Source: a virus (Duplodnaviria > Caudoviricetes). From it: a stretch of 54,442 bases of DNA. Positions 1 to 51,968 of the stretch are shown piece by piece. Position 1 is the stretch's first letter. Each line of letters starts with the position of its first letter. A program made the translations under genes and the position numbers. The notes below the pieces were generated by a model that ran no database searches, was not told the origin of the DNA, and saw only the letters and a list, made by a program, of their open reading frames with translations. The stretch spans positions 1 through 54,442 of IMG/VR virus record IMGVR_UViG_3300025727_000815, one strand, 5' to 3'.

Positions 1-3000
1 ATCGTGTCTCTTTTCCAAAGGTATCAAGTCCACCACTTTCATCATACATTTCAAGATATAGTAAATCCATCTCCTTAAATATCTTTCGTTGAATATCTTT
101 CTGATTTCCATCTACATTTCTCCAACCCGATGGTGCTATTCTTAAAACATATTTAGTATTTATTTTATTTTTATCTAAAACTAATCTATCAAATTTATCC
201 CATATTTTGTTGTTTTTATTTCCAAATGGCCAGTTACCAAGTGTTACATCAAATCCTTTCATAAGAATCTCCTTAAATTTTTGAGATGGATTTAATACAT
301 CTTCATTAAAAATATTTTCTTCTGGAATACCTAAATTATATTCTTTGTTGATTTTTTTAAAAATCTTAACCATATATGGATCTATATCATTATAATAAAT
401 ATTAGATGTATCTACCTCAATACCTTTTTCTTTATACATTTCAAGTAAAGTTATCAACGAAGTTCCACGTCCTGCTGCTGGATCTAAAACTACTGGATTT
501 TCAATAACTTCATTTTCTAAAAGTTTTTCAATCATTATTCTAAATAACCAAATGGGTGTTGGATAAAATGAAGTATCTTCATCTTCAAGTTCTGGACTGG
601 CCAAAAGTTCTAATAATCCATTCAAACTTATATTATCTGAATTAATTTTATGAACCCACCGATTGAAATAAGAAATATCTATTTGATTTTTATCTAACAT
701 ATAATATGGAATTAATTCTACTCCCTTACCAATTCCGTCAAGTACATCACTATTATTTTCATTTATAGACTTTACAACGAACTCAACTCCTTCTTGTAAA
801 GTATTAAAATTCTCAAGATAACATAAAACTCGTACTTTAGAAAGATGTTTTTTTACCATATTACGATAAAATGTTACTTTATTTTTCTCATTCTTAAATT
901 CTTTTTCAAATAACTGTAATTGTTTAGATAAGATTTTCCTTTCAAGATCCTTTGCGTCTGTCATACCATTATCCACAATAACAACATCTTCAGATTGGGA
1001 ACTACTTGATTTAAATACTAAATCAAAATCATCTGGTACTTTTAATTCTTTAATACAACCACGAACTCCATAATTTCCCCTAACACTTAAAGCTTCTAAC
1101 CGAGATACTAAATCAGGAAAATCAAGTTTTTTCCAAGAATCATTTTCACCAGTAAATACATTATAGTTTTCAAGAACTCGTATCAAAACATCTTTGAAAG
1201 ATTCATCCTTTCCTCTCATCATTGATACCAACTGTTCAACTGATACATGAAGATTAATTACTTCATCTACACTTCCAATAAACACTCCACAATTTTTCTT
1301 CCCCTTAAATGGTCTTTTCACTCTACCAACTATTTGTTCAAACAATTTAATACTATCACCAATAGGTGCTAAAAAGATAACACTTCCCCATTGTGGAATA
1401 TCAGTTCCAGTTAAATACTTGGTACAAGTTAAAGTAAGAGTTGGTCTTTTATTCTCAACAGTAACTTCTTTAATCTTTCCAACATCACCATCTTCATATA
1501 CTTCTATAATATCTCTATCAGATGCCACTCCATTATCTTCCAATAACTTCATTAACTTTGGAATATAATCACTAACACCAACATTGTTTTGACCTGATGG
1601 AAGTCTCATAATTATATGTCGTTTTGCTTCATCACATAACTCTGGTGCTGAATGAATACTCAATCCTTCTACTTTACTATCAAATCCAATAGAACGACCC
1701 AATATTCTTTCAAAAATATAAACTAACGCATCACCATAAAGAAAATTTTCATTCTTATCCATAGTGGTAAATAACTTTTTCCAAGTCCAACCATTTACAT
1801 CATCTTCCCATTTACCATCCGCCTTTAACCTTACTAAAGTTTCTTTAATATCTGGTAATCCATAATAATTCATATCTGGATATTGACCATATGGCCCATC
1901 TGGATCTAAAATCTTTTCTCTACACAAATCATCCCAAGTAAATAGTGCCGTTTCTTCGGGTGAGAAATAAAGTTGATTATCTTCATTAAAAATATAATCA
2001 TATGGTGTTCCCGTAACTAATATTAAATGCTTTCTCTTTAATTCATTAATATTACTCCACATTTTATTACTGGGATTGGACAAAAATTTATGTGCCTCTC
2101 CAATAGACAAAATACCAATCCGTTCATCTAATCCTACATATATAGATTTTAATTTTTTACCAAAATCTTTGCCTTTTCTTTCAGTTAATCCCAAATCGTG
2201 GAAACTACCAAGTAAAAGAGGAACTTGTTCCTTTGTGTGTGTTGGTGGTATATCCCCCACCGTATCAACAACATTTACATTGTGTTTAAACCATATTTTT
2301 TGTCGGCGAGTAAGAATAGGGTAATAACTCTTTGTAAATTTTTCAACCATATATAGTTCAAATCTACTATAATCATAAAATTTACCTGTTATCTCATCTG
2401 TCATTCCCTTAACTTCTGTAAGTTCTTTGATTAATTCCATTATAGTAGATGGTACGGTTGCTACACCAACATGCAATGATGTTTCATCAATCTTATTCTC
2501 TTTCAACATTTTATCGTGTCGGTGAATTAAGAGAGTCAAGTTACTTGTTTCTTTACCCGAACCAGTACATCCTGCTATAAGAGATTTATCTGAACTATAT
2601 CCCTCATCCATTAATGAATCCATATATCTTCTCATACTATATATTTTAGATGGATTAATCAACACTTGTTTTGAAATTTCTTCCATCTTAGACACAAGTT
2701 TAAGTTCAATATCTTCTCTTGTTTCGTTTTCATCAAACTCAACTAATAACTCACGAGATGCACCACCTACATCATTTTTAATTGTACCTTTATAGTTTGG
2801 AAAAAGTGGTCTAATAAAATCGTCAAATTTGTCGTAATGATTTTTCGAACTATAACCTGCATCAATTGCTTGTTCAGTCATATCAACACAAAAAATTACA
2901 TTATTTGTATTAAGAAGTCCTCGGCCTTTGGCCAATGTAGAGTTTACAGCGTATTTAATCGCTTCATCTTTAGTTACACAAACGTGCTGTCCGGGTGCCT

Positions 3001-3136
3001 TTGCAACCCACTTTCCATTAAATTGATATAGAACTCCGTAAATCCAAAGTCTTTTATTATCTAACATATTATAATTTGTTTTACCATATTTTGGTAAACT
3101 TTCAATTGTAAGTGGTTTTGTTAAAGTATTATTCAT
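1..3136 (-). CDS. Fused SF2 helicase/ATPase + N6-adenine-type DNA methyltransferase (Type ISP/IIG-like restriction-modification protein); runs off the window edge
   Basis: Not in the ORF track. Manual translation from ATG at 3136 (MNNTLTKPLTIESLPKYG...). Motifs: GCTGSGKE (Walker A-like), LSIGEAH (2090-2110, Walker B-like), VTGTP, LTGTDIPQW, EQIVGRVKRPF, then FYPTP, VVLDPAAGRG (SAM binding) and DVTLGNWPF (224-250). GEAH and NWPF checked in frame with the start. Preceded by a promoter repeat. Confidence 0.85.
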   Translation of the reverse strand, partial: MNNTLTKPLTIESLPKYGKTNYNMLDNKRLWIYGVLYQFNGKWVAKAPGQHVCVTKDEAIKYAVNSTLAKGRGLLNTNNVIFCVDMTEQAIDAGYSSKNHYDKFDDFIRPLFPNYKGTIKNDVGGASRELLVEFDENETREDIELKLVSKMEEISKQVLINPSKIYSMRRYMDSLMDEGYSSDKSLIAGCTGSGKETSNLTLLIHRHDKMLKENKIDETSLHVGVATVPSTIMELIKELTEVKGMTDEITGKFYDYSRFELYMVEKFTKSYYPILTRRQKIWFKHNVNVVDTVGDIPPTHTKEQVPLLLGSFHDLGLTERKGKDFGKKLKSIYVGLDERIGILSIGEAHKFLSNPSNKMWSNINELKRKHLILVTGTPYDYIFNEDNQLYFSPEETALFTWDDLCREKILDPDGPYGQYPDMNYYGLPDIKETLVRLKADGKWEDDVNGWTWKKLFTTMDKNENFLYGDALVYIFERILGRSIGFDSKVEGLSIHSAPELCDEAKRHIIMRLPSGQNNVGVSDYIPKLMKLLEDNGVASDRDIIEVYEDGDVGKIKEVTVENKRPTLTLTCTKYLTGTDIPQWGSVIFLAPIGDSIKLFEQIVGRVKRPFKGKKNCGVFIGSVDEVINLHVSVEQLVSMMRGKDESFKDVLIRVLENYNVFTGENDSWKKLDFPDLVSRLEALSVRGNYGVRGCIKELKVPDDFDLVFKSSSSQSEDVVIVDNGMTDAKDLERKILSKQLQLFEKEFKNEKNKVTFYRNMVKKHLSKVRVLCYLENFNTLQEGVEFVVKSINENNSDVLDGIGKGVELIPYYMLDKNQIDISYFNRWVHKINSDNISLNGLLELLASPELEDEDTSFYPTPIWLFRIMIEKLLENEVIENPVVLDPAAGRGTSLITLLEMYKEKGIEVDTSNIYYNDIDPYMVKIFKKINKEYNLGIPEENIFNEDVLNPSQKFKEILMKGFDVTLGNWPFGNKNNKIWDKFDRLVLDKNKINTKYVLRIAPSGWRNVDGNQKDIQRKIFKEMDLLYLEMYDESGGLDTFGKETR

Positions 3137-3194
3137 TTTATTATACATTTATTAATTTATTAATTGTTAATTTATCTCTCATTTCTTATACCTA

Positions 3195-44257: not shown

Positions 44258-44527
44258 TTATAACTTATCCGATATCCAATCATTCGCGACAGTTAGTTTT
44301 TCTGCCGAAGTAAATTCTACTGGATCCTCTCCAGGATATGTAATATCACTACTGGTCACGTGGGCCTTGAAATCATCACTTGAAACTACCACAGCATCAC
44401 CCGGCACATCTGTATCAAGTGCACTTCCATATAAAAAAGACCCCGATGGGAAATATCCACCATCTATTACATATGATGGTATGGTAGAACCATCTTGAAG
44501 TTCATATTTTACAATTACAGTTGCCAT
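44258..44527 (-). CDS. Hypothetical protein (island)
   Basis: 89 aa; AGGAG RBS. Confidence 0.75.
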   Translation of the reverse strand: MATVIVKYELQDGSTIPSYVIDGGYFPSGSFLYGSALDTDVPGDAVVVSSDDFKAHVTSSDITYPGEDPVEFTSAEKLTVANDWISDKL

Positions 44528-44536
44528 TGTGATCTC

Positions 44537-45349
44537 CTATTTAATTCCATTTTTTAATTGTTTTTTATTTTCCGACGGATTCTCTAACAAATCTTCTGTT
44601 TTACCATATAATCCACTATTTAATCCAATCAAACCTTCTCGTAAACCTTTTAATTGTTCGGCCTCAAGTGCTATTCTATCAATATCAAGTAATCCACTCT
44701 CATTCAACATCGAAACTTGAAATTTTTCATTCAAAACGGGCCTTTCTTCAATATGTTGAATAGTTTCCCAAACACTCTTAGAGATTCCAGTAATTCTAGA
44801 TTTGGCCTCCCATAGTGCCTGATTTTCTATATTCCATTTCCAATATTTGGGCATTTCTTCCTGATATTGTTCATTAGTTGGGACGATCCCATCATTCATT
44901 TCTATCAATTTGACTCTCATTTTTTCAAAATTATTACACATAGATAATTTATTTTGAAGTGCAACCTCATCAAGAAATCTTTTGTTTTTTAAAGTTAATA
45001 TCCATAAATCTGTAAATTTTTCTTCAAACTCACCGTTAGCACCAGTACGAATTGTTATTTTTTTCTCTCCCCGTTCCAATGCCTCTTCATATTCTTTTAT
45101 AAGTCTACTCGATTCCTCTATGTCAGTACAAAATCTAATTGATTCACTCAGAGAGAATACATACTGTCGCATCATAAAATGGAAATTATGTGCTATGAAC
45201 TGTCCCTCTTTCATTACTGTGAATTTCTCCACATCGAAATCCGATTTCAACTGTCCCATCTCTATAAACTGTGAATATAAATCTTCCATTTGTCCTTGAT
45301 GGGATTCTCGAATTTCCTCCAATTTAGTAATATCATATTTTTTCTTCAT
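44537..45349 (-). CDS. Helical/coiled-coil hypothetical protein (island)
   Basis: 270 aa, Glu/Lys-rich, directly after the polyprotein. Confidence 0.75.
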   Translation of the reverse strand: MKKKYDITKLEEIRESHQGQMEDLYSQFIEMGQLKSDFDVEKFTVMKEGQFIAHNFHFMMRQYVFSLSESIRFCTDIEESSRLIKEYEEALERGEKKITIRTGANGEFEEKFTDLWILTLKNKRFLDEVALQNKLSMCNNFEKMRVKLIEMNDGIVPTNEQYQEEMPKYWKWNIENQALWEAKSRITGISKSVWETIQHIEERPVLNEKFQVSMLNESGLLDIDRIALEAEQLKGLREGLIGLNSGLYGKTEDLLENPSENKKQLKNGIK

Positions 45350-45375
45350 TATTATTGTTACCTTTATTTATTTAA

Positions 45376-48150
45376 TCAATTATATCCAGTTTCGGATTCT
45401 GACACCCCATGACCACTTCGATTGCCAATTAAATCACCTTTATCTGAACCATTTCCGGAAGTGGTTGTGTTGTTGGTGTATTCTATTATATTATAGTTAC
45501 TTACGGTATTATTGTTATATCCACCCATAAAATGTGTATAACCGTTATCACCTGAACCACCTGAGAGATAATATCTCCCCACAGTTAAATCACCCTTATC
45601 CGATGCATTTGCAGTTGAAGTGGTATCTGATATATAATCCGTGACGTTTTGTGTTTGACTAGTCGAGGATTTGAATCCACCAGCGTGAAAAATATATGTA
45701 GTTCCACCACCCCCACCATCGCCATTCGCATACCGGCCTGTGGTTAAATCTCCCCTATCCGATGCTGCTGCGCTACCGGCTGATGAAACGTTACAGTGTG
45801 TAATATAGTTCACTTCATGTCCTGAACTTGCCCTTCCACCGGCACCGAATGAATAACCACTATCTCGACTATTTCCCATTCCGGCAGGATCCCTAAGTGC
45901 CCAGGGATAATCCCCGGCATCCGATGCATTACCAGTTGTACTCCCCATATTGATATAATCGATTACATTTGTGGGTGGAGATCCACAAAAACAAAATCCA
46001 TACGTAGCTCCTTGTCCAGACATAGACGCCCGTCTAGACACCGTTAAATCTCCACCATCTGATGCATTACCAGATACCGTAGTGGCAGTAGAATATTGAA
46101 TAGCATTAGTATTACCGCCGTTATATCCACCAAGAGTAAATTTATAACTTGCACCACACACTCCAGTGGTAAATGCTATTGATTGTGCCAAATCCGATGC
46201 ATCGGTAGCGTTTGTTGCACCATTATCCCCATCAAAATATTGAATCGTGTTGGTTCTGGAACCATTCGATTGTGCACTCGATCTACCGCCCATCGCCCAA
46301 ATGTATGCACCCCCACTCTTATTATGGGTTAATACTCCATTTGCAAAAAATGTAAAGTTTTTGTCTAGAGAAAAAATATAAGTCTGGAATTCTTCTTTTT
46401 TAACTTCAAGTTCACCTGTTTTCTCGTTTATTGATTTCTCAACTTTCGGTGAAATTACATTTATTTCAGTGATGGTTTCTTCTACTAAGTCATCACCATT
46501 CAATTTAAAAATAGTATCACCGATTTTCAATTTGTCTACAGGCATATCATATCTAGATAATGTCAAATGTGGTTTAAACGAACACCACCCAACATTTTTA
46601 ACATAATGTGGATGATCAAAGGTATTGGTGACCGAAGTGTTGTCTGAAAATGATATTCTCACAATATCATCATGTAATGGTTGAATTAACGATTTAACGG
46701 TAGATTCTTCAATTTTTTCAGTTTTTTCATTCCACGATTTTACCACGTCCCCCACAACTACATCTTCTATATTTTTTTCTTCACCATCATGCATAGTTAC
46801 CTTAGTACCTGCAATAAAACACCATGCTCCCAGACTCACGTTATGAACAAAATAATTATTTCCAAAATAATTATCATAATTATTTACATCAATTCCATAC
46901 GTTTTGGCTGCCTCATTAACAACCTCTACATCACGAATTTCTTCAATCTCATAATTATTCTTTAAAATGACATCCCCAACTTCAATCTCTGATGCTGGTT
47001 TAAATTTCCAAGAATTCTTATGTAATACACATAAATTTGCACTTTTCGTAAAACGATTCCCATTAATAACAACATACCCATAAGTCATTTTCCCCACCAC
47101 TCCACGAGCCGTAGATTCCAACTGTTTTACGGTTGATAAATTAATTTGATCAGAAACCCACTTCTTCCAAACTTTATTTTTCTGTAGTGATTTTATATCA
47201 TAACTCAACAATTTATCCCCTGGTAAAATATTTTGTATTTTTTTAGTAGAACCATCGGATAATAATATATCAGTATCTTTTAGAAAACTATTCCCATATG
47301 TATCATACTGTTGATATTCAGTTTCCGATATCTTCTCATAAAATTTAGCACTAACGAATGGTTCAGTATTAAGTGGGATAGCGGTGGTGGGTGTTATTAA
47401 TGAGAGTCCACGTAACTCTATATTATAATTCTCAAATTCATCAAATTGGTCTGAAACTATAAAATTTTCTAAATATTGATTTTTATTCAACTCACTTTTA
47501 TATGTATCGGTGAACTCCAATCCCATTGTTCTATCAATTGTGGAATTTTTAATCACATAGTTTGGGAAAATATCATTTAGGAATACTGTATTATCGATTG
47601 TTAATCTACTGAGTTCATTTTCCTTTAAGAAGGTCAAAAATGATTTTTTATTTGCGGCAAATCCATCAATTTTAGACTCTGGATCAAACGAAAATCGTAA
47701 TAAAAATGTATCATTATCAAAATTGATAGTTGAATTATCTTGAGTCACTTCCAACCCAATATTAAAAGTTTTTAATTTATCTTCTAATATAGACATAAAA
47801 TCAGTTGAAGGATTTTCTTTATCTTTTACTGGAATGTCATACATTTTGCTAACCAAGGCAATAACTTTATTATATTTATTTTGAACGAAGAAATCTACCA
47901 ATGTATCAAAATTAAAATATGGAATGTATTCTTTATAAATTCCAATATGAGTATTCAATTCTAATATTTTTAAATTATCATTTTGAGGAATGAAATCATA
48001 TGCAACTAATACTCCCTCATGTTTCTTATTTTGCCAATAAGAATGTCCAGTAAATAGTTCCGAAATGTTTATTATTTCATCATTTAATTTGGAAGTATAT
48101 GTTTTTTTATTATATTTTAATCTATTGTTCATATTAATTTGCAACTCCAA
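45376..48150 (-). CDS. Polyprotein: circularly permuted ATP-grasp-like domain + Hint1 + VSLGAW + Hint2 + Kelch-like beta-propeller repeats
   Basis: YDFIP...LKILELNT, YVIK...G, YLENFI; Hint1 S288-N437 (SFLKDT...YFVHN); Hint2 C444-N610 (CFIAGT...TFDH...VLTHN); about six GNASD.GDLT..R repeats. Confidence 0.8.
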   Translation of the reverse strand: MELQINMNNRLKYNKKTYTSKLNDEIINISELFTGHSYWQNKKHEGVLVAYDFIPQNDNLKILELNTHIGIYKEYIPYFNFDTLVDFFVQNKYNKVIALVSKMYDIPVKDKENPSTDFMSILEDKLKTFNIGLEVTQDNSTINFDNDTFLLRFSFDPESKIDGFAANKKSFLTFLKENELSRLTIDNTVFLNDIFPNYVIKNSTIDRTMGLEFTDTYKSELNKNQYLENFIVSDQFDEFENYNIELRGLSLITPTTAIPLNTEPFVSAKFYEKISETEYQQYDTYGNSFLKDTDILLSDGSTKKIQNILPGDKLLSYDIKSLQKNKVWKKWVSDQINLSTVKQLESTARGVVGKMTYGYVVINGNRFTKSANLCVLHKNSWKFKPASEIEVGDVILKNNYEIEEIRDVEVVNEAAKTYGIDVNNYDNYFGNNYFVHNVSLGAWCFIAGTKVTMHDGEEKNIEDVVVGDVVKSWNEKTEKIEESTVKSLIQPLHDDIVRISFSDNTSVTNTFDHPHYVKNVGWCSFKPHLTLSRYDMPVDKLKIGDTIFKLNGDDLVEETITEINVISPKVEKSINEKTGELEVKKEEFQTYIFSLDKNFTFFANGVLTHNKSGGAYIWAMGGRSSAQSNGSRTNTIQYFDGDNGATNATDASDLAQSIAFTTGVCGASYKFTLGGYNGGNTNAIQYSTATTVSGNASDGGDLTVSRRASMSGQGATYGFCFCGSPPTNVIDYINMGSTTGNASDAGDYPWALRDPAGMGNSRDSGYSFGAGGRASSGHEVNYITHCNVSSAGSAAASDRGDLTTGRYANGDGGGGGTTYIFHAGGFKSSTSQTQNVTDYISDTTSTANASDKGDLTVGRYYLSGGSGDNGYTHFMGGYNNNTVSNYNIIEYTNNTTTSGNGSDKGDLIGNRSGHGVSESETGYN
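46321..46821 (-). other. Hint/BIL domain 2
   Basis: Starts Cys, TFDH block B, ends His-Asn, +1 Lys. Confidence 0.88.
46840..47289 (-). other. Hint/BIL domain 1
   Basis: Starts Ser, ends His-Asn, +1 Val; block B reads TKSAN with no His. Confidence 0.8.
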
Positions 48151-48239
48151 TATTTACGTTGAATGAAATTGTCGTGTCCTAAATCTAATATAGTCTAAAC
48201 TCTATTACATCTATAAATATGTATTTATCAAGTTTTACA

Positions 48240-48779
48240 TTAAATATTTGCAACTATAGAATCACAATCTGTCTTGGAGTTTTCAAATAAAATTTTAAAT
48301 TTATCAGTTGATATTTTAATGTTTGGTGTATCAAAATCATGAATATATATATTATTGTTATCAAATCCTACAACCGGTACATAATGTAATCCCCGGTTTG
48401 GGAAATTTAATAGACAAATTATTGGGATACCAGAATTAATCCAACTTTTAATAGAACTAATAGTTACTTTCTTAACAATCAAATTTAAATTTAATTTTTC
48501 AATATCAATTAAATTTTTATCCAATATACTCTTATATCGGGGTGATATATCAAAATTCAACACATTGGTTTTAGAATATAAAGTTGAGGAAAGTCCATAC
48601 ATATGTAATAATAATAATATTTCTGTTGATAATAATGGTCTATCCTCGATTACTCCCAATCGATGTCTCATCTCATTGACCCCCACAACTATATCAAAAT
48701 ATTCCAATATCATTTTTGCCGAAATAAATCCACATTCATTTAAATTAGTTTGAGTATAATATGGAACAATTAGATTCAT
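48240..48779 (-). CDS. C39-like cysteine peptidase
   Basis: VPYYTQ...ECG, LHYVPVVGFD, IHD; start MNLIV via ATGA overlap. Confidence 0.85.
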   Translation of the reverse strand: MNLIVPYYTQTNLNECGFISAKMILEYFDIVVGVNEMRHRLGVIEDRPLLSTEILLLLHMYGLSSTLYSKTNVLNFDISPRYKSILDKNLIDIEKLNLNLIVKKVTISSIKSWINSGIPIICLLNFPNRGLHYVPVVGFDNNNIYIHDFDTPNIKISTDKFKILFENSKTDCDSIVANI

Positions 48780-49204
48780 CTGGCCACCCACCCACATCGT
48801 GTAAACAATGAATATCCTGCAACATTCCAATCATCAACTTTACAGTAAATTTCTTTTATGTTTTTTCTAAATGTTAAATTCATCATACTATAAACCAACC
48901 CAGACCCAATTCCATTTCCCCTATGATCCTCATGAACATATAAATTACAAAGTTCCTTAATTACAGGATTATACCAAACCCATCCAAATATTTTATCATT
49001 ATTCTCTATTACGTTAAAATCCCATTTGTCATTTATTCTATGAATTGCATCATCAACATCCCACATTTCTTTCCAGTTCAATTCTGTCTGAAACTCATCA
49101 ATGGCATATTGTAAATTTTCCACATTTAGTGTACTGACATTTAATATATTTAATTTCACATCCACTGGAATATATTGTGAAAAATTATAACATAAATTAT
49201 ACAT
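48776..49204 (-). CDS. GNAT acetyltransferase
   Basis: LYVHEDHRGNGIGSGLV, N..G..LF...G. Confidence 0.85.
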   Translation of the reverse strand: MYNLCYNFSQYIPVDVKLNILNVSTLNVENLQYAIDEFQTELNWKEMWDVDDAIHRINDKWDFNVIENNDKIFGWVWYNPVIKELCNLYVHEDHRGNGIGSGLVYSMMNLTFRKNIKEIYCKVDDWNVAGYSLFTRCGWVAR

Positions 49205-49209
49205 TTAAA

Positions 49210-49758
49210 TTACATTTCATATTTATATTTAAACTCTTTTATATCATTATTTGCTAAAGCATATACCTTATCAATACTCACATCATCATAATAATAACTA
49301 TAATGTTTTCTATCAATTGAATTTTCCACATTTAAATTCCCATTAAAAATACTATTAAAATCAGATTGGATAGTTTCATATTTACCTACAAAATCCAGTT
49401 CCGATGTACCAAAATCAACCTGTTGAAGTGTTCTATATGGGAAATTATCTAACCAACTTTTAAATTCATATTTTTTTGCAACTAAAGTGGTCAATCTATC
49501 TGGAAACATTTCCTGGTATGTTTTTGATTTATTATAAAAATATAATGACACAAATCTATCCCAGGGATTTCTTACAAAAGTAAATTTAAAATACTCTTTA
49601 TAGATAGTATCCAACTTCCTAATATGCCTATGGTAATCTAAAGGTGATGGTGGGGAGTTAACTATCTTATCATGGAGATTTAAACAAGATTTAATACTTG
49701 TCCCACCGGTTCTTGGAATATGAATAAAAATAATTTTTTTAGTTTCATCTATATACAC
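49210..49758 (-). CDS. Sulfotransferase family 2 protein
   Basis: FIHIPRTGGTS, FVRNPWDRFVSLY. Confidence 0.88.
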   Translation of the reverse strand: MYIDETKKIIFIHIPRTGGTSIKSCLNLHDKIVNSPPSPLDYHRHIRKLDTIYKEYFKFTFVRNPWDRFVSLYFYNKSKTYQEMFPDRLTTLVAKKYEFKSWLDNFPYRTLQQVDFGTSELDFVGKYETIQSDFNSIFNGNLNVENSIDRKHYSYYYDDVSIDKVYALANNDIKEFKYKYEM

Positions 49759-50804: not shown

Positions 50805-51968
50805 TTAATCCTTTAATAAATCTGTCATATTAGTTCCCATAAATCTATCTTGCCAATATGACTTTTTAACATTCTCATTTAATATTCTCACCAAATCACT
50901 ATAATTTGAATGACTCTCCTTCCAAACCGCCTTCTTTTCATATTCTTTATCTGTAAAAGTTCCCCAATTTGTAATCTTAGAAAAATAAACATAAATACTT
51001 TTATTTCCACTTTCTTTTACTAATTTATCTCTAAGTTTTATCAACTTTGGTATTTCTTTATAATTTGTATCTTGAACTACCATACTCATCCCAAACCAAG
51101 TAACTTCTTTTGGAATAAATTTTAAATTCTCCATTAATTGATCCCAATCTCCACCTCTCCTAACTTTTTCATAAGTTTCTTTAGTTGCCGCATCAATAGA
51201 TATTTCTGCATCTGAAACTAAGTCATGAACATCTGACATTTTATCCCACAATTCTTTTGTCCACTTTACTCCGTTAGTGTGAAGTCTAATATTTTTTACA
51301 CTCGGAAAATTCTTTTTCTTAAAGTTCAATAAAAATTTTCTTAATGTTGCACTTCCAAATGGATCCCCTGTTCCAGTAATATATAACTTTCTCGTTCCCT
51401 CTTGTATAACTTTAATTACTGAGTTTTGTATTTTTTCAATTAACTCAAATTCTTTTCCTCTCGGTGTTATTAAATCTTCTCTACAAGATGGACAAGATAA
51501 ATTACAACTTCTATCATAATCCATTTTCACAACATCTGGAGCCAAGGATAATTCTGTTAATTGTTTTTCTATTATATTACGATGATATTCACCTTTTTCT
51601 TTATATAACAACTCTATATCTTTCATTTTTCTAACTGATGGAGCTGATTCAATAGAGCCTACATTCGGTTTACTATGTACATTTTGTAAATGTGGACATA
51701 AATTTTCATTACAGTATTTAAATGAACCATCTAAAATAGATTTTCTAAACTCTTGAGCCTTTTCACCATTCCAAACATCTTCCCATTTATCTTTATAAAT
51801 ATTCCCAAAATCATATCCAGCTGGATTGGTATCATCTTTCAACCAACCAGGACAACAAGGATAAACATCACCATTTACATTTGGACTACTTTCTGGTTCT
51901 CCAGTATGTCCTATTTCAGCCCATCCACCCATTGCAATAGAACAATATAATTTATCATTAAAATTCAT
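50805..51968 (-). CDS. Radical SAM protein with N-terminal SPASM/twitch-like domain
   Basis: VYPCC...WNG..AQEFR; CNLSCPSC. Confidence 0.88.
   Translation of the reverse strand: MNFNDKLYCSIAMGGWAEIGHTGEPESSPNVNGDVYPCCPGWLKDDTNPAGYDFGNIYKDKWEDVWNGEKAQEFRKSILDGSFKYCNENLCPHLQNVHSKPNVGSIESAPSVRKMKDIELLYKEKGEYHRNIIEKQLTELSLAPDVVKMDYDRSCNLSCPSCREDLITPRGKEFELIEKIQNSVIKVIQEGTRKLYITGTGDPFGSATLRKFLLNFKKKNFPSVKNIRLHTNGVKWTKELWDKMSDVHDLVSDAEISIDAATKETYEKVRRGGDWDQLMENLKFIPKEVTWFGMSMVVQDTNYKEIPKLIKLRDKLVKESGNKSIYVYFSKITNWGTFTDKEYEKKAVWKESHSNYSDLVRILNENVKKSYWQDRFMGTNMTDLLKD

Follow-up and report, generated by a model that had tools for sequence, protein, structure and literature searches.

A putative self-processing ligase-Hint polyprotein in a variable gene island of an uncultured marine phage

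The polyprotein and its two Hint domains

We analysed a 54,442-nucleotide stretch of DNA from a tailed virus (IMG/VR record IMGVR_UViG_3300025727_000815, hereafter the window), in which six adjacent genes between positions 44258 and 49758 form an island. The window derives from a large AT-rich phage and is transcribed throughout from the minus strand, as judged from the open reading frames (ORFs) of at least 90 amino acids (aa) that matter, and the island occupies a variable slot between two clamp-loader genes of this uncultured marine myovirus-like phage. In the order of transcription, the island encodes a sulfotransferase, a GNAT acetyltransferase, a C39-type cysteine peptidase, a long polyprotein and two further proteins, p270 and p89. 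An initial annotation had interpreted these genes as an operon for a ribosomally synthesised and post-translationally modified peptide (RiPP). Its six genes proved to be real and to lie on the minus strand at the coordinates given below; because the whole window reads from that strand, their common orientation is uninformative. We propose instead, at a probability of roughly 0.55, that a self-processing polyprotein lies at the centre of the island, and that its partners act in the roles described below.

The polyprotein is encoded by a long ORF (45376-48150), which most likely begins at the ATG at 48132, because its homologues all begin there; this start gives a protein of 918 aa, and residue numbers used here refer to the 924-aa version. 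It consists of an N-terminal ligase domain, a first Hint domain (Hint1), a six-residue spacer, a second Hint domain (Hint2) followed by Lys at its +1 position, and a 314-aa domain of six repeats. There are thus two Hint domains, as compared to the single one annotated initially. Thirteen full-length relatives, with 36-76% identity, are alignable over the four parts. Several Pfam Hint families match residues 443-610, and the Pfam matches of the island all score above their curated cut-offs.

The N-terminal domain (N-domain; 281 aa, residues 7-287; 47290-48132) resembles an ATP-grasp-like amide ligase in its fold. Its structure was modelled with AlphaFold from 29 family sequences, with a predicted local distance difference test score (pLDDT) of 67 and a predicted TM-score (pTM) of 0.68. 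In a Foldseek search with this model, the top 45 rows all belonged to one clade (E about 1e-5, TM about 0.37), which includes glutathionylspermidine synthetase, YgiC/YjfC, eukaryotic glutathione synthetase and trypanothione synthetase. An independent all-against-all fold search found 11 members of the clade plus the ligase Cp1B at VIA Z 10.4-6.0, the next row being unrelated at 4.8; the best structural matches (VIA Z 10.4-7.2) extended over 196-223 aligned residues. Asp52, Glu64-x-Asn66-Thr67, Lys168 and Pro196...Lys201 were invariant in the alignment with the 13 relatives, and the motifs D..E-x-N-T, R..D and P[DN]..K were also invariant across 31 diverse members. No ATP-grasp model of Pfam or NCBIfam (both at E up to 10) or of PHROG matched the domain, and a profile search against PDB sequences gave a single non-significant match (E 1.3), located on the Glu-x-Asn motif of biotin-carboxylase-type ATP-grasp.

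At the level of fold, these results suggest that the N-domain is an ATP-grasp-like amide ligase of the glutathionylspermidine/glutathione-synthetase type. The ATP-grasp assignment made initially thus agrees with the fold matches and with the conserved metal/ATP motifs, while the sequence libraries searched gave no such match. The nearest folds are of a type other than that of graspetides, with no graspetide ligase among the listed fold matches, although an unlisted family could still match. The domain shares its fold and an Asp...Glu-x-Asn motif near the N-terminus with glutathionylspermidine synthetase, E. coli YgiC/YjfC, eukaryotic glutathione synthetase and the fungal ligase Cp1B, as the last is presented in part of PMC12568646. 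It differs from the glutathionylspermidine-synthetase clade in its low identity (about 10%) and in being shorter (281 aa, as compared to 370-600). The phage gss homologues in the available part of PMC9992855 are separate genes in gene clusters. One related locus has, besides a full ligase-Hint gene, a separate 194-aa ORF (L035:10043-10627) upstream of its GNAT gene; this ORF resembles only the beginning of the ligase domain, with 28% identity.

Hint1 (150 aa, residues 288-437; 46840-47289) could be aligned with Hint2 from end to end by BLASTP (E 9e-6), and scored 25.7 bits against PT-HINT, below the cut-off of 27.7. Position 1 is occupied by Ser, Asn, Thr, Val or Met, and block B is without His. 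The domain ends in an invariant His436-Asn437, after which comes Val, Ile or Leu. Judged by these residues, Hint1 is a degenerate member of the Hint superfamily, without the conserved N-terminal nucleophile and the block-B His.

Hint2 (167 aa, residues 444-610; 46321-46821) matched the Pfam family AXH at 3.7e-19, and Hom_end_hint, PT-HINT (34.8 bits versus 27.7) and Hint were all above cut-off. It carries Cys444, Thr510-x-x-His513, His609-Asn610 and Lys611 at +1. These residues, together with His436-Asn437 of Hint1, are invariant in the 13 full-length relatives, and in 36 further sequences the Hint1 His-Asn and the Hint2 Cys were each found in 36/36 and the +1 Lys in 35/36. The bacterial intein-like (BIL) domains described in part of PMC7664689 lack a +1 nucleophile and mainly cleave. 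Because Hint2 has the complete set of Hint residues yet is followed by Lys rather than Cys, Ser or Thr, its sequence corresponds to that of a complete A-type BIL Hint by the published definition. Neither domain looks like a canonical splicing intein, since in the window and its relatives the +1 residue is Val or Ile after Hint1 and Lys after Hint2. Many other phage proteins also contain Hint2-type domains with a following Lys, frequently in final position with Lys and then a stop, so that the +1 Lys is a property of the Hint2 class.

This wide distribution bears on an alternative, that the Hints are selfish intein-like elements piled into the ligase gene and that the island is a chance set of accessory genes with no joint function. 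It would explain why Hint2-type domains are found in many unrelated phage proteins, why tandem Hints one residue apart occur elsewhere, why the gene content of the slot is highly variable and why canonical mini-inteins come and go in the same proteins, with one or two in relatives and none in the window. It would leave unexplained that Hint1, which cannot splice for want of a nucleophile at either junction, is nevertheless fixed in every ligase-bearing member examined, with its His-Asn invariant over clades of about 22-25% identity. No splicing nucleophile follows either Hint, and GNAT is associated with the gene in 41/43 loci. We therefore consider the selfish-element explanation unlikely.

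The mini-inteins of the relatives lie 16-17 residues past Hint2, sometimes with a second one within the repeats, and run from Cys1 to His-Asn, with Ser or Thr as the +1 residue, as in canonical inteins. In L083:3732-5540, L080:11876-13270 and their relatives, mini-inteins sit at equivalent points of different Gly-rich repeats, after Gly-Gly-x-x-x; the repeat domain of L083 contains two canonical ones and that of the window none. Separately, six loci (L111, L112, L116, L118, L125 and L132) encode other large proteins of 1030-1870 aa with two Hints one Lys apart.

The wider ligase-Hint family and its variable peptides

A profile of the N-domain searched against 1.84 billion representatives retrieved 109 proteins, in all of which the domain is N-terminal. 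Among 37 that were scanned, the proteins of at least 580 aa mostly had a Pfam Hint near residue 460-500. The length classes differ only past Hint2, where the protein either stops after three residues, continues through 2-7 residues into a third Hint, has both a third and a fourth Hint, or continues with the repeat domain. Homologous loci are labelled L001 and so on; 78 viral contig loci were parsed and metagenome loci were counted apart. Hint1 lies upstream of Hint2 in 62/78 of the viral contig loci.

Many members end 4-75 residues past the Hint1 Asn. Short-tailed members have 4-13 residues after the Hint1 His-Asn, several of them ending in Leu/Ile-Pro-x-Lys, and a peptide of this type is also found between Hint1 and Hint2 in a marine clade. 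Other members have Cys-rich tails of 30-75 residues past the Hint1 His-Asn. A viral scan with this subfamily yielded 204 coding stretches, and 76 parsed viral loci contained 54 distinct tails, most of which are 26-32 residues long, contain six Cys and are rich in Trp and Tyr. A six-Cys-type peptide lies between Hint1 and a second Hint in two loci (L180 and L187). In relatives, the position of the spacer is taken by IPPK-type tetrapeptides, K-C-x5-C octapeptides or six-Cys peptides. Since the tails past the Hint1 Asn vary in length, in type and in their position before a second Hint, the residues after this Asn read as a variable cargo, and the spacer of the window, VSLGAW (46822-46839; six residues from the Hint1 Asn to the Hint2 Cys), stands in that position. 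The initial suggestion that the substrate may be embedded in the polyprotein therefore fits the wider family.

A Hint followed by a variable part is also what would be expected of an effector resembling a polymorphic toxin, in which a pre-toxin Hint releases a C-terminal effector and p270 or p89 serves as immunity protein or helper. The score of Hint2 against PT-HINT (34.8 bits versus 27.7), the hypervariability of the post-Hint part across the family and the small conserved genes next to it are consistent with this possibility. In contrast, searches of four libraries revealed no family for trafficking or secretion, toxicity or immunity, many members have a tail of only 3-4 residues, and p270 accompanies the repeat domain in tail-fibre modules, which together make a toxin very unlikely. 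A match to Peptidase_S74 in long Cys-rich forms was below threshold (E 0.071).

Searching with the polyprotein among cultured-phage records gave matches only to inteins in Vibrio phage helicases. Genome contigs searched with the full-length alignment contained seven Hint-only loci with no ligase domain; this pattern is subfamily-specific, so that absence from cells does not follow from it. Literature searches turned up no paper describing a ligase-Hint fusion, and none is mentioned in the available parts of a jumbo-phage review (PMC7824862) and a polyvalent-protein paper (PMC5512222). The parent family is large and viral, of a putative enzyme-plus-self-released-cargo type for which no description was found in the literature or family libraries searched. 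Within it, the locus represents a new architecture, with a cargo reduced to the spacer, a fixed second Hint, a fused tail-fibre-like domain, p270, C39 and p89.

Other islands of the family carry additional enzyme genes. In L150, L139, L181, L187 and L226, genes for Trp halogenase (2e-91 to 6e-109) and APS kinase adjoin the ligase-Hint genes, and Trp, Tyr and Cys are abundant in the cargo peptides. In the marine clade whose spacers contain Pro-Pro, the gene is followed by two to five paralogues of a 2-oxoglutarate (2OG)-Fe(II) oxygenase; those of L019, L025, L026, L047 and L052 have a common C-terminus, Gly-[Asp/Asn]-x-Phe-[Arg/Lys]. Further neighbours are a Sulfotransfer_2 protein in L139 and sub-threshold sulfotransferase-like proteins. 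Halogenase, oxygenase and APS kinase-type genes are common in aquatic phages. The initial view of the locus as a tailoring island is nevertheless indirectly supported by these neighbours in the family.

A broader possibility, which we regard as doubtful, is that the arrangement ligase-Hint1-cargo, with or without Hint2, is a virus-only way of making or attaching ribosomal products without a separate protease or leader. Hint1 would expose the cargo amine, Hint2 or the ATP-grasp ligase would activate the carboxyl end of the cargo, and the cargo would be cyclised or joined by an isopeptide bond to Lys611, where a receptor-binding module begins, or to another target. Neighbouring GNAT, sulfotransferase, halogenase and oxygenase enzymes would tailor the cargo, which has six residues here and consists of tetrapeptides or six-Cys peptides elsewhere.

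The repeat domain, the partner genes and their setting

The polyprotein's C-terminal domain (314 aa; 45376-46320, stop codon included) is Gly-rich and made of six repeats of about 50 aa, with an N-x-I-x-Y motif at residues 24, 72, 118, 171, 225 and 277 of the domain. The domain had no match in any sequence library searched, Tandem Repeats Finder detected no DNA-level repeats across this region, and an ESM Atlas search with the domain returned viral hypothetical proteins plus weak Kelch and PLL propeller leads only. Of the initial propeller assignment, the six Gly-rich repeats are borne out; the fold is unproven, as the model has a pLDDT of 34 and the Kelch/PLL leads are weak.

Twenty-five stand-alone relatives of the repeat domain were found, and in four of them the longest contig is equal in size to that of p270 relatives. 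Stand-alone homologues of 316 and 420 aa occur within tail-fibre modules, which makes the virion-surface role suggested initially plausible; the 420-aa protein had no match among cultured-phage records. The gene for p270 (270 aa; 44537-45349) lies directly downstream of the polyprotein. A profile of p270 collected 165 relatives, while Pfam and PHROG gave no match, ESM Atlas nothing usable and cultured-phage records one weak match. Two unrelated phages, represented by three viral loci (L156/L158 and L157), encode a stand-alone repeat protein, with 42% and 33% identity to the window domain, that is followed directly by a p270 homologue. The L157 pair has on one side a tail collar fibre protein (phrog_523, 5.8e-40) and on the other a tail assembly chaperone-domain protein (PF16778, 4.6e-9), and the L156/L158 pair sits before small membrane proteins and an M23 peptidase. 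Because the stand-alone repeat genes in tail-fibre modules each precede a p270 homologue, we read the repeat domain and p270 as a putative mobile cassette of a tail-fibre tip and its helper, fused behind the ligase-Hint core in this lineage, with p270 as a candidate assembly helper. The cassette resembles those of tail-fibre tips and chaperones in this gene order. It differs from them in that the domain is fused behind two Hints in a replication module and that p270 has no match among the known chaperone families.

The GNAT gene (142 aa; 48776-49204) matched Pfam Acetyltransf_1 / GNAT at 2.6e-13; its nearest NCBIfam model was RimI, below the cut-off of that model, and no PDB sequence matched it. 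Its stop codon overlaps the start codon of the C39 gene in an ATGA at 48779-48776, as annotated initially, and this overlap fixes the length of the peptidase at 179 aa (48240-48779), the full ORF being 48240-48830. The stand-alone C39 peptidase matched Peptidase_C39 at 2.7e-11 (43.8 bits versus a cut-off of 22) and C39_2 at 4.5e-9. Gln10, Cys16 and His132 are invariant in six homologues, and there is a weak match to the LahT double-glycine protease (6mpz). No ABC transporter was found in the island in the ORF list or with Pfam. The sulfotransferase (182 aa; 49210-49758) matched Sulfotransfer_2 at 1.5e-12 (48.6 bits versus a cut-off of 22) and phrog_3347 at 1.9e-15, and PDB sequences gave only weak, unrelated rows. 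It showed no detectable homology to the P-loop sulfotransferase-like proteins of the wider family, which are themselves sub-threshold in Pfam. The names given initially to the sulfotransferase, GNAT, C39 and Hint are therefore upheld by Pfam, each above its curated cut-off.

The p89 gene (89 aa; 44258-44527) encodes a small conserved protein of the subfamily that has no match in Pfam, PHROG or NCBIfam. A p89-like gene follows p270 in L001, L080-L083, L085 and L154. In an alignment with six homologues, identity was 31-35% except for the near-identical L001 (98%), and Gly-Gly at 23-24 is invariant. Its N-terminus was considered as a double-glycine leader and set aside, as conservation runs past the Gly-Gly along the whole length; the idea is kept only within the graspetide alternative discussed below. 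A predicted complex of C39 and p89 scored 0.00, which carries no weight either way.

Whether these genes belong together was addressed by their co-occurrence in related loci, many of which are close relatives, so that the tallies are not independent counts. In 43 viral loci with a complete polyprotein gene and at least 700 nt of upstream sequence, GNAT lay upstream at no more than 1.5 kb from the polyprotein in 41; in L002 it is 2.5 kb away, and L034 had no match. C39 was present in 10/10 contigs of the repeat-domain subfamily with DNA upstream of the polyprotein, and in 2/78 viral loci overall. In the same subfamily, p270 was present in 8/8 contigs with downstream DNA and a p89-like gene in 7/7. 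C39, p270 and the p89-like gene are confined to this subfamily, and the joint set occurs in about 10 related contigs. The initial annotation had named failure of co-occurrence in related phages as its refutation, and the counts for GNAT (41/43), C39 (10/10) and p270 (8/8) speak for the association. The sulfotransferase, in contrast, was found, each time at the equivalent place, in only 3/40 viral loci with the Zn-ribbon gene (L001, a near-identical phage; L021; L025) and in 0 metagenome loci, so that it is an accessory gene rather than a regular member of the island.

Microviridin-type graspetide clusters combine ATP-grasp ligases, GNAT and a peptidase/transporter, and the island likewise combines ATP-grasp, GNAT and a C39-type peptidase. 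This likeness underlies the alternative of a graspetide/microviridin-like RiPP operon, in which the ATP-grasp enzyme cross-links a peptide, C39 cuts a double-glycine leader (for example in p89), and GNAT and the sulfotransferase decorate the product. That GNAT, C39, ligase and a small conserved protein are found together agrees with it, as do the retained Gln, Cys and His of C39, its weak alignment to LahT, and the Trp halogenase, 2OG-Fe(II) oxygenases and APS kinase in which related family islands are rich. However, the nearest folds of the ligase are small-molecule or peptide C-terminal amide ligases, with no graspetide ligase among the listed rows. The spacer has no Asp, Glu or Lys and thus no graspetide cross-link residues, and no separate leader-core precursor gene (Thr/Ser plus Asp/Glu) was recognised. 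The C39 peptidase has no fused transporter and occurs in 2/78 viral loci, the sulfotransferase is rare, and p89 is conserved over its full length, beyond any leader. These observations render a graspetide operon quite unlikely. The RiPP-like operon proposed initially is partly borne out, in the idea of an embedded substrate and in the conserved partners, and the microviridin analogy and the place given to the sulfotransferase find no support.

The island is flanked upstream by genes for an RFC-type clamp loader, a ClpP-like protease, a radical SAM protein, a PfkB kinase and a Zn-ribbon protein, and downstream by a small clamp-loader subunit (phrog_225), DUF1599 and a PD-(D/E)XK nuclease. The clamp loader of the window has at most 50% identity to any phage record in the collection searched. 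The small subunit was found downstream in 22/22 and the large subunit upstream in 21/21 viral loci. A scan for promoters and terminators gave results not above those for shuffled sequences.

Fourteen marine DNA runs from 2012-2019, belonging to at least 10 studies, contained at least 98% of the sampled words, and the window itself may stem from some of them. Since the population is almost unchanged in marine samples from 2012-2019, these data point to lasting selection on the function of the island. Contigs from four metatranscriptome libraries (three studies) had at least 99% identity to the sulfotransferase, GNAT, all parts of the polyprotein and p270, and were colinear over the Hint junctions without joints. 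The bin 48321-48521, within C39, had zero cover in the four RNA libraries, which proves nothing.

Elsewhere in the window, positions 14521-41325 hold a block of about 27 kb for sugar and nonulosonic-acid biosynthesis, unusually large for a phage, with NeuB, epimerases/dehydratases, glycosyltransferases, a split transketolase, cytidylyltransferases, a radical SAM/SPASM protein and UDP-glucose dehydrogenase. A radical SAM protein encoded at 50805-51968 has an N-terminal Cys cluster of the SPASM/twitch type (SPASM 30-87, Radical_SAM 154-312); it matched the NCBIfam model 'twitch domain-containing radical SAM' at 5.7e-19, below cut-off, and has homologues in 11 related viral loci. Between 4500 and 9400 there are few ORFs of at least 90 aa, and the GC skew climbs to about zero or positive, unlike in the remaining window. 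An ORF of at least 1049 aa (2-3148), open at the window edge, has an N6 DNA methylase domain near its C-terminus.

Proposed processing and comparison with known systems

In the processing that we propose for the polyprotein, Asn437 of Hint1 would cyclise and cut after itself, freeing the ligase-Hint1 part and exposing the spacer amine at Val438. Cys444 of Hint2 would convert the Trp443 carbonyl to a thioester, and Asn610 would cut past Hint2, freeing the repeat domain with Lys611 as its new first residue. The thioester might then be resolved by water or by the amine of the spacer itself; alternatively, attack by a lysine amine might yield an isopeptide, a route with a precedent in BUBL BIL2 of Tetrahymena. 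The products would be the ligase-Hint1 part, free Hint2, the repeat domain, and a spacer whose amine is free and whose carboxyl is activated. Aided by p270, the repeat domain would form a module like a tail-fibre tip, probably sugar-binding. As guesses, GNAT might acetylate the newly exposed amine, the ligase might join the carboxylate of one product to an amine, and C39 and p89 might be subfamily-specific helpers; the sulfotransferase would be an accessory tailoring gene.

Several observations weigh against this proposal. Each chemical step, whether cleavage, ligation or modification, is a prediction from conserved residues. The ligase model is of moderate quality (pLDDT 67, TM about 0.37) and no ATP-grasp sequence model matches the domain. 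Hint2 is 48-53% identical to Hints of unrelated phage proteins, as compared to 37-41% to the Hint2 of the wider family, and this closer kinship suggests that it may be a mobile element and not a designed part. Some members have only three residues past Hint2, which shows that releasing a large cargo is not the core function and that such release past Hint2 is dispensable. The fold of the repeat domain was not obtained (pLDDT 34), and the domain is without the N-terminal anchor region of the 420-aa stand-alone homologue, which leaves its attachment to the virion unexplained. In addition, the island is placed in the replication module, away from the structural genes, and the RNA libraries may carry DNA.

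The arrangement can be compared with several known systems. In borosin precursors, an enzyme is fused to its own core peptide; the polyprotein likewise joins an enzyme and a variable C-terminal peptide in one chain, and differs in that release is predicted to occur by a built-in Hint rather than a separate protease, and that the enzyme is a ligase, not a methyltransferase. BILs have been described within variable bacterial surface proteins. Hint2 resembles the A-type in its Cys1, block-B Thr-x-x-His, terminal His-Asn and absence of a +1 nucleophile. In contrast to the described BILs, the Hints of the window stand in tandem behind a ligase, in phages, and Hint1 also has no N-terminal nucleophile. 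The closest precedent that has been tested is BUBL of Tetrahymena, where BIL2, located between two cargo domains, attaches the upstream domain to a lysine through an isopeptide bond and needs no ATP to do so, according to the available part of PMC8616854. In BUBL BIL2 (PDB 6TMM, 6Y75), the cargo lies between intein-like domains without canonical splicing, its C-terminus is activated by the downstream Hint, and the thioester is resolved by the amine of a lysine; the order in the window is Hint1, spacer, Hint2 and Lys. The cargo of BUBL is ubiquitin-like and eukaryotic, whereas the putative cargo of the window is a six-residue spacer in a phage. Furthermore, the window has a crippled upstream Hint, which is preceded by a fused ATP-grasp ligase.

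If the predicted cuts occur, the polyprotein would be a compact natural device, in which a C-terminal-cleaving Hint and a thioester-forming Hint surround a short peptide beside an ATP-dependent ligase. This paired-Hint layout recalls engineered intein cyclisation and resembles BUBL conjugation, yet it is fixed in abundant ocean phages. If the proposal is correct, the family would offer a new way of making ribosomal peptides in modified or cyclic form and new self-cleaving or ligating parts for protein engineering, and phages that carry it may be able to swap or decorate their receptor-binding modules post-translationally.

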